Source: Candidatus Parcubacteria bacterium
Lineage (GTDB): Bacteria > Patescibacteriota > Minisyncoccia > Phycocordibacterales > Zambryskibacteraceae
Direction: 5' to 3'
Length of the DNA stretch: 57,665 bases
Assembly: GCA_019661865.1 (NCBI GenBank)
Contig: JAIFWJ010000004.1
Span: forward strand, 1-57,665
The translations under genes were made by a program, and so were the position numbers. The notes under the pieces were generated by a model, which saw nothing but the letters and a program-made list of their open reading frames with translations, had not been told where the DNA came from and ran no database searches. Positions within the stretch are counted from its first letter, which is position 1; each line of letters starts with the position of its first letter. Below, in pieces: positions 56,948-57,665 of the stretch.

Positions 56948-57665
56948 AATTGAATTACTCCACGAGCAGCTTCCGCTACCCGTGCCTTGTTACGACTTAC
57001 TCCCTGTCGATGAGCTTACCGTAGGGCACTAAAGTGCACTTCGGGTACTCCCATCTCCCTTGAGTTGACGGGCGGTGAGTACAAGACTTGAGAACGTATT
57101 CACCGCGGTATAGCTGACCCGCGATTACTAGCAATTCCGGCTTCATGGGGTCGAGTTGCAGCCCCCAATCCGAACTAGGTGTCAGAGGGACATGCTGACC
57201 TGGCGTCATCCTCGCCTTCCTCCCCGGTTTGTACTCATGAGTCTTCGTCTTAGACTCCTGCCCACAAACCGGGGCAGTCTCGCCAGACACTTATAACTGG
57301 CAACGAGGGTTGCGTTCGTTACCCCACTTAAGGGAACAATTCAAATCACGAACTGACGACGGCCATGCATCACCTGTCCATACGTCCTTGCGGACGACAC
57401 ACGTTTCTGCGTGTCTTCGTATGGATTTCTAACCTTGGTAAGGTTTTTCGTTTGTCATCGAATTAAACCGCATAATCCACTGCTTGTGCAAGTCCCCGTC
57501 TATTCCTTTGAGTTTTAGCCTTGCGGCCGTACTACCCAGGCGCTTCACTTAACGCGTTAGCTTCGCCTCTGAGGGGGTCGATTCCTCCAAAAGCTAGTAG
57601 AGATCGTTTAGGGCGTAGACTACCTGGGTATCTAATCCAGTTCGCTACCTACGCTTTCGTGTTTC
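56948..57665 (-). rRNA. rrs: 16S ribosomal RNA, partial (roughly E. coli positions 770-1542; the 5' part lies beyond the window)
   Basis: Reverse-complement landmarks are GGATTAGATACCCAGGTAGTC (57620-57640), ACAGGTGATGCATGGCCGTCGTC (57355-57377), GTACTCACCGCCCGTCA (57066-57082), AAGTCGTAACAAGG (56985-56998) and helix 45 with a GGAA loop (56961-56984). There are mismatches to the universal 806R/926R/1391R/1492R sites. The 3' end position is approximate. Confidence 0.9.

Follow-up and report, generated by a model that had tools for sequence, protein, structure and literature searches.

The 16S rRNA gene at one end of the DNA analysed here, a stretch of 57,665 nucleotides from a tiny, uncultured Parcubacteria bacterium that is called the window throughout, ends without the CCUCC core of the anti-Shine-Dalgarno (anti-SD) sequence. 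The reading we favour, at a probability of roughly 85%, is that the anti-SD has genuinely been lost, that the loss was inherited, since the whole clade has the same trait, and that start codons are found by leaderless and re-initiation routes.

The loss of the anti-SD in this clade is already in the literature. Tsurumaki et al. (2022, RNA 28:1041, PMC9297842) detected CCTCCT in only 48% of Parcubacteria, and they report that a uL1-less Parcubacteria subgroup has no anti-SD, the lineages that lack the motif overlapping with this group, and that SD helices are presumed not to form in them. This subgroup is the same clade, with the same trait, as the 16S rRNA of the window. In its accessible part, the paper contains no analysis of the replacement tail, of downstream pairing or of gene starts, and the word "leaderless" does not occur. 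The value of the window is confirmatory, since the core fact has been published; it adds details of the replacement tail and of the gene-start architecture, as well as a pairing between the tail and the downstream sequence that shows compensatory changes across lineages, and the absence from this rrs copy of about 80 nt of essential core that all relatives examined have. In a literature search of partial coverage, we found no paper tying leaderless initiation to Parcubacteria, Patescibacteria or CPR, and nothing on the replacement tail or its pairing in these bacteria.

The 3′ end of the 16S rRNA gene

The fragment of the 16S rRNA gene (Table 1) covers positions 748-1533 of the Rfam model RF00177, its 5′ side being truncated by the window end. 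Its score of 540 bits, against a gathering score of 50, places it among the bacterial SSU rRNAs, and its last 183 nt alone reach 143 bits in a focused Rfam SSU_rRNA_bacteria covariance alignment. Helices 44 and 45 of the decoding centre are intact in the Rfam alignment, and the tip of helix 44 is shortened, as has been reported for CPR (PMC9297842). All 10 pairs of helix 45 are 100% paired across 74 related sequences, with compensatory changes in six of them. Directly after helix 45, the tail GAGUAAUUCAAUU aligns to the consensus GAUcACCUCCUUu (model positions 1521-1533) without gaps and with full posterior probability, and both the Era-binding GAUCA and the anti-SD CCUCC are substituted, by GAGUA and AUUCA, respectively. 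None of CCTCC, CTCC and TCACCTCCTT is found on the rRNA-sense strand from position 57000 down to the tRNA-Ile gene (56314). With a clear helix 45 and, after it, 13 nt of tail that contain no CCUCC(U), the window 16S rRNA belongs to the anti-SD-less type. The original prediction had placed AAGTCGTAACAAGG, helix 45 (CACGGGTAGC-GGAA-GCTGCTCGTG) and the tail GAGTAATTCAATT at the positions listed in Table 1, and on re-reading all of these sequences and coordinates are correct; the missing CCUCC core that it had claimed is confirmed by the covariance alignment of the 3′ domain and by the absence of CCTCC and CTCC down to the tRNA gene, and for the tail none of the observations named in advance as refuting it was made.

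Table 1. Positions of the features discussed in the text, numbered along the window.
Feature	Position	Strand	Basis or remark
Bacterial 16S rRNA gene, 3′ 718 nt	56948-57665	−	Rfam RF00177, 540 bits, E 1e-168
Conserved AAGUCGUAACAAGG linking helix 44 and helix 45	56985-56998	−	Sequence reading and Rfam alignment
Helix 45, CACGGGUAGC-GGAA-GCUGCUCGUG, GGAA loop intact	56961-56984	−	Model positions 1497-1520
13-nt 3′ tail GAGUAAUUCAAUU in place of GAUCACCUCCUUU	56948-56960	−	Gap-free Rfam alignment
Putative mini-hairpin UUCA-AUU-UGAA	56944-56954	−	Minimum-energy fold
Deletion junction, about 80-83 nt	57176-57177	−	Rfam alignment gap, unpaired 5′ strands
39-nt lineage-specific hairpin-loop expansion	57228-57266	−	Rfam model position about 1160
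Intrinsic-terminator-like hairpin AAAAACCGGGGAATTCCCCGGTTTTT	56779-56804	−	Read directly from the sequence
tRNA-Ile(GAU)	56240-56313	−	ARAGORN; Rfam tRNA, 74 bits
AAGGAGGT, 4 nt before the ATG of the 77-aa membrane-protein gene 52854-53087	53092-53099	−	
AGGAGG, 4 nt before the ATG of the transaldolase-family gene 38214-38930	38935-38940	−	
TATAAT ending 7 nt before the ATG of gene 51067-52815	52823-52828	−	Leaderless-type example
TATAAT box	47817-47822	−	
TATAAT box	14416-14421	−	
TATAAT box	10295-10300	−	
TATAAT box	19988-19993	+	

The same 3′ end was compared in relatives by scanning genomes, one representative per species, with a 16S pattern that leaves the tail unconstrained (GTACTCACCGCCCGTCA, 55-85 nt, AAGTCGTAACAAGG). 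The scan returned 120 loci, mostly in CPR (Patescibacteria) metagenome-assembled genomes (MAGs) plus Campylobacterota. When these loci were sorted by helix 45, with the window included, CCTCC was absent from 52 of 52 sequences having a CACG-type helix 45, all of them from Parcubacteria/Paceibacteria MAGs, and it is likewise absent from L121, a metagenome contig of a related Paceibacterium; the comparison of tails among relatives that had been proposed with the original prediction thus bears it out. The GGAGTAATTCAATT tail is identical in three loci, of which L052 agrees with the window over 21 nt past helix 45 and L066 and L101 over the 13-nt tail. The form GGA(A/T)(T/C)(A/C)ATTCAA occurs in about 20 further loci, and near-identical tails in about 25 other Paceibacteria-type loci. 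In the same scan, GGATCACCTCCTT is retained in ABY1-type CPR (Magasanik-, Falkow-, Uhr- and Moranbacteria) and in Campylobacterota, and intermediate tails are seen as TCTCC in Azambacteria, Ryanbacteria and some Peribacteria and as CTTCC in other Peribacteria.

The host can be assigned to the class Paceibacteria of the Parcubacteria because its nearest partial-16S matches, at 84-91% identity over two conserved blocks, are Zambryskibacteria, Taylorbacteria, Adlerbacteria and Paceibacterota MAGs. Judged by the 52 CACG-type tails, the lack of the anti-SD is best described as a clade-wide inherited trait of Parcubacteria/Paceibacteria 16S rRNA genes. As a separate observation, many MAGs with Paceibacteria- or ABY1-type helix 45 and tails carry the labels Saccharibacteria, Spiroplasmataceae or Gammaproteobacteria (L004, L006-L008, L034, L037, L052, L059, L063, L067, L100; L026; L023, L044, L054, L120), a mismatch that casts doubt on the taxonomic assignments or on how the rRNA contigs were binned.

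Gene starts in the window

The use of SD sequences was scored by the presence of GGAG, GAGG or AGGA at positions −20 to −4, with the start codon taken from the longest ORF. Such a 4-mer precedes 4 of the 46 window genes (9%), compared with 17% of within-gene control windows, and the predicted duplex energy to ACCUCCUUA is weaker in the upstream regions of the 46 ORFs than in the controls. SD-like motifs are at or below background before the genes of the window, with no enrichment. A similar result was obtained for the Paceibacteria-type loci, in which the 4-mers precede 25 of 258 genes (10% vs 14% in controls). The ABY1-type loci bearing CCUCC show a weak enrichment (14% vs 9%) in a group comparison that is underpowered, and Campylobacterota reached just 29% in the same count, so that the control for SD use is a weak one with longest-ORF starts.

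A different signal stands before many of these genes. Free upstream DNA of 15 nt or more is available for 18 genes, and in 12 of these a hexamer resembling TATAAT ends 6-9 nt ahead of the start codon, compared with 2.2-2.6% expected by chance per random site (binomial P about 1e-15), and the TG of an extended −10 element is also present at several of these boxes; exact TATAAT examples are listed in Table 1. A −10 box that close to the start codon is the DNA signature of a leaderless mRNA, since it would place the beginning of the transcript at that codon or immediately next to it. The other genes mostly share 1-29 nt with the gene in front of them, and overlaps of this size fit re-initiation after termination. 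The suggestion in the original prediction that the ribosome has no canonical anti-SD and that this fits a leaderless pattern is supported by the clade-wide tail, by SD motifs at or below background, by the 12 of 18 −10 boxes and by the same loss reported for a Parcubacteria subgroup (PMC9297842). The −10 peak at 6-9 nt recurs in Paceibacteria-type loci (37 of 191 genes) and is weaker in ABY1-type loci that keep CCUCC, such as L010, L025, L051 and L078 among others (16 of 95 genes). This comparison, though rough, hints that leaderless starts may predate the loss of the anti-SD.

The original prediction had also pointed to strong SD-like motifs before 38930, 53087 and 13146 as being in tension with a missing anti-SD. 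The motifs are present as it had read them, but the tension dissolves, because two of them precede the two highest-GC genes and the third lacks a spacer. The G+C contents of the genes 52854-53087 and 38214-38930, 0.526 and 0.522, are the top two of 47 (mean 0.415, sd 0.041), and the former gene, with the highest value in the window, is preceded by a TTGACA...TATAGT promoter of its own. On the simplest reading, both genes are probably imports that retain the SD of their donors. The third motif, GGTGGAGGT at 13147-13155, abuts the ATG of obg with zero spacer and could not act as an SD for want of that spacer. The only strong SD-like motifs in the window belong to its two highest-GC genes. High G+C (0.49-0.53 vs the window mean of 0.415) is a feature of the genes at 29832-31317, 38214-38930 and 52854-53976, which were possibly acquired horizontally, and one of these groups adjoins a homologue of the type IV coupling protein (51067-52815).

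On the mechanism that we favour, the 30S subunit would be unable to pair with GGAGG-type sites because the anti-SD is lost, and it would have to locate start codons otherwise. The first gene of a transcription unit, with its −10 box about 7 nt before the start, would be read from a leaderless mRNA, and its transcript is predicted to begin at or beside the AUG. Downstream genes, most of which overlap by 1-29 nt, would probably be read by re-initiation after termination. Leaderless translation in Actinobacteria, Deinococcus, haloarchaea and mammalian mitochondria likewise has its start codon at or near the 5′ end of the transcript and uses no SD, and the mammalian mitochondrial SSU rRNA is also without an anti-SD (PMC10582724). 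In contrast to the 16S rRNA of the window, Actinobacteria and Deinococcus retain a canonical anti-SD and have SD sequences on many genes, and unlike in those systems, the leaderless starts of the window are deduced from DNA only.

Few bacteria have lost the anti-SD. Of more than 20,000 taxids with readable 16S tails, Amin et al. (2018, PMC6107228) counted 128 as convincing cases, and these 128 organisms are without SD sequences and without a compensating motif. The anti-SD-less bacteria known elsewhere include Flavobacteriia (Chryseobacterium, Elizabethkingia, Blattabacterium), some Mycoplasma, Carsonella and Hodgkinia (Lim et al. 2012; PMC6107228). The window resembles them in having a good helix 45, a tail without CCUCCU, no enrichment of SD sequences, no motif fitting the variant tail and a phylogenetically clustered trait; it differs in that the lineages are unrelated and in that no dominant leaderless promoter signature was reported for them (PMC6107228). 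A very large environmental class without the anti-SD shows that an entire bacterial lineage can do without SD pairing, and Paceibacteria could serve as a natural system for the study of SD-independent initiation. In practice, gene callers built on ribosome-binding-site models will misplace start codons in these genomes, SD-like motifs in them could be used as markers of recent gene import, and SD rules cannot be assumed when Paceibacteria genes are expressed elsewhere or foreign genes are expressed in Paceibacteria.

Pairing between the tail and the start of the trailer

In other bacteria, the 13 nt that make up the tail have a second partner besides the mRNA. The KH domain of Era binds GAUCA and CCUCC directly after helix 45 (Tu et al. 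2009, 2011; review PMC10582724), and it is in these same 13 nt that the window has GAGUA and AUUCA instead. The era gene has been lost in most CPR (PMC10582724); Paceibacteria are without rplA and der, and Paceibacteria, ABY1, Saccharimonadia and Gracilibacteria, taken together, are mostly without era (PMC12641178). Both known partners of the tail, the SD of the mRNA and, going by the literature on CPR, the KH domain of Era, would thus be gone, which would leave the sequence of the tail free to drift.

The drift appears to be constrained in one respect. The tail can form a mini-hairpin with the sequence that follows, in which the 5′ arm UUCA (56951-56954) occupies the site of the anti-SD CUCC in other bacteria and the 3′ arm UGAA (56944-56947), separated by a loop of 3 nt, lies just beyond the end of the Rfam model. 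In 63 of 118 sequences, the 15 nt after tail positions 7-10 contain the exact reverse complement of these four bases; swapping arms among sequences that differ in them gives an expectation of 3.1 ± 1.7. The arm pairs observed are CUCC/GGAG, UUCA/UGAA, UUCC/GGAA, CUCA/UGAG and GUCA/UGAC, as well as UCCA...UGGA in Paceibacteria. Their distribution follows the lineages, with CUCC...GGAG in the CPR bearing CCUCC, UUCC...GGAA in some Peribacteria, and the UUCA, CUCA, UCCA and GUCA types in Paceibacteria. In a covariance-model alignment of 74 sequences, which was fitted to the hairpin structure and is hence biased towards it, all four hairpin pairs show double-sided changes and 93% of cells are paired. 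The predicted energy is weak (−1.7 to −6.8 kcal/mol), the hairpin is missing from about a quarter of Paceibacteria-type tails, and RNAalifold, run on the tail alignment alone, recovered helix 45 and not the tail hairpin; the proposal is based on the pair counts and the alignment-free test, not on energy. Our conclusion from these, held with moderate confidence, is that the bases at the anti-SD position also serve as one arm of a short hairpin formed with the beginning of the trailer, a pairing that persisted after the function of the anti-SD had been lost. Variant tails with matching changes in the trailer are also seen within Peribacteria, as CUUCC...GGGAA (L012, L064, L065, L082) vs UCUCC...GGGAG (L003, L016), and as CGCC...AGGC (L077) and CUCU...AGAG (L106), all of them cases of the same pairing outside Paceibacteria.

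Two other roles for the replacement tail have to be weighed. The tail might be a re-specified anti-SD, with AAUUCAAUU pairing with a new motif, such as AAUUGAAUU, before genes; 24 of 51 sequences of the clade have UUCAA as their tail core, more than have any other, which points to some constraint on the sequence. However, the upstream regions of the 46 genes are no more complementary to the new tail than gene interiors are (means of −1.06 and −1.28 kcal/mol; P = 0.78 with the short tail and 0.10 with the long tail, upstream vs within genes). The idea of a downstream box fared no better, since the first 28 nt of genes show no significant complementarity to this tail. In relatives, the corresponding bases are CUCA, UCCA, GUCA, UUCC or UUAA, each with a matching change in the adjacent 3′ arm, and such matched changes indicate intramolecular pairing and speak against pairing with mRNA. 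Moreover, Amin et al. (2018) found no match of a variant anti-SD with a variant SD in the 128 such organisms (PMC6107228). Collectively, these data make a re-specified anti-SD very unlikely. The other alternative, which is compatible with the main reading, concerns the hairpin itself, which might belong to the mature 16S rRNA instead of being a processing element of the precursor only, acting for example as a 3′ cap against exonucleases or as a folded-back tail that clears the mRNA exit channel. Conservation among close relatives does extend through the 3′ arm (…UUUGAAA) and falls directly after it, and a loop of 2-4 nt leaves little space for an internal cut. Against this, in the relatives bearing CCUCC the Rfam model stops 5-7 nt short of the homologous 3′ arm (GGAG), the pairing is weak, and in model bacteria the sequence corresponding to the 3′ arm sits in the trailer that is trimmed off. 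A hairpin in the mature rRNA seems unlikely on balance, though far from implausible.

With the loss of the anti-SD as the preferred reading, the retained pairing may, at moderate confidence, be understood as a feature of the 3′ end of pre-16S rRNA that is independent of translation initiation. A broader proposal, which we put forward tentatively and at somewhat less than even odds, is that the anti-SD site has a second and older role as a hairpin arm, which outlived SD use in Paceibacteria, and that initiation there is essentially only leaderless or by re-initiation. If this were true, the hairpin would be an element of 3′-end maturation or quality control, or a mature 3′ cap, and Paceibacteria would be a bacterial class that initiates essentially only on leaderless mRNAs and by re-initiation.

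Internal deletion and surroundings of the gene

The 16S rRNA gene of the window also lacks an internal piece (Table 1). The deletion takes out helix 41, the conserved GGGCUACAC... and, in the 3′ major domain, the 3′ strands of long-range helices, the 5′ strands of which persist without partners in the Rfam alignment, leaving the 3′ major domain incomplete. The region is kept in eight of the eight closest genome relatives and in L121, that is, in nine relatives in all, and the flanks in L121, CTCTGACACCT and AGTTCGG, are identical to those of the window. L121 came from a metagenome scan with the 22-mer adjoining the deletion, which yielded this one related contig, of a different species. No repeat flanks the junction, and a search across the window for the missing segment as part of a fragmented rRNA gave no match at three or fewer mismatches. 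As assembled, the window 16S rRNA should not fold into a normal head domain. The gene may not be a working one with this deletion, and as it stands the copy is probably non-functional or misassembled, whether it be a misassembly, a population variant or a dead copy.

This raises the possibility that the window rrs is a decayed or misassembled copy and that a working 16S rRNA with a normal CCUCC tail is encoded elsewhere, in support of which one can cite the loss of about 80 nt, including helix 41, that all nine relatives examined have kept, and the fact that no 23S gene follows. However, dozens of relatives with an intact 16S rRNA share an identical or near-identical tail, outside the deletion the gene is well conserved and has kept helices 44 and 45 intact, and the window genes make no use of SD sequences, as is predicted for an anti-SD-less ribosome. 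CPR genomes also usually have one rrn copy, and a second copy with a canonical tail is extremely unlikely in light of these points. A local assembly or sequencing error near 56950, which would have undone the original prediction and for which no evidence was found, has a practically negligible probability, since L052, L066 and L101 are independent assemblies from different studies with the same tail, and independent assemblies from many studies agree with them. The genuine loss of the anti-SD is unaffected by the deletion because it is based on the clade.

A second departure from the model lies in a hairpin that we take to be helix 40, the loop of which is expanded to 41 nt vs 3 in the Rfam model. 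Unrelated expansions are found at the same site in L108 and L033, and none in the other close relatives. A metagenome scan with the species-specific pattern of this loop expansion gave 0 matches.

The spacer between the 16S rRNA and tRNA-Ile genes measures 634 nt (56314-56947). It contains a strong, bidirectional terminator-like hairpin about 145 nt past the 3′ end of the 16S rRNA, which the promoter/terminator scan missed because its T run pairs with an A run, followed by an ORF of 45 codons (56582-56719), hydrophobic in its C-terminal half, and by a second terminator (56556-56577). The layout in L121 is alike, with a 16S rRNA gene, an analogous terminator hairpin, a small membrane ORF and a tRNA-Ile gene, the last of these on the strand opposite to the 16S rRNA gene. 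No 23S gene is present in the remaining 56 kb of the window downstream of the 16S rRNA gene, indicating that the rRNA genes are unlinked.

The intact tRNA-Ile(GAU) is followed, 43 nt downstream, by a second and decayed copy at 56131-56197 (minus strand). The last 23 nt of this copy match with 2 mismatches, its anticodon loop and T stem are broken, and ARAGORN made no call; a gene for a VTT-domain protein begins 6 nt past it. The window as a whole is compact, with about 42% G+C, and encodes SecA, GatB, Obg, many glycosyltransferases and the type IV coupling protein homologue. It also holds an ORF of 2106 aa at 1458-7778 (minus strand), followed by a fibronectin type III protein of 560 aa (7775-9457).
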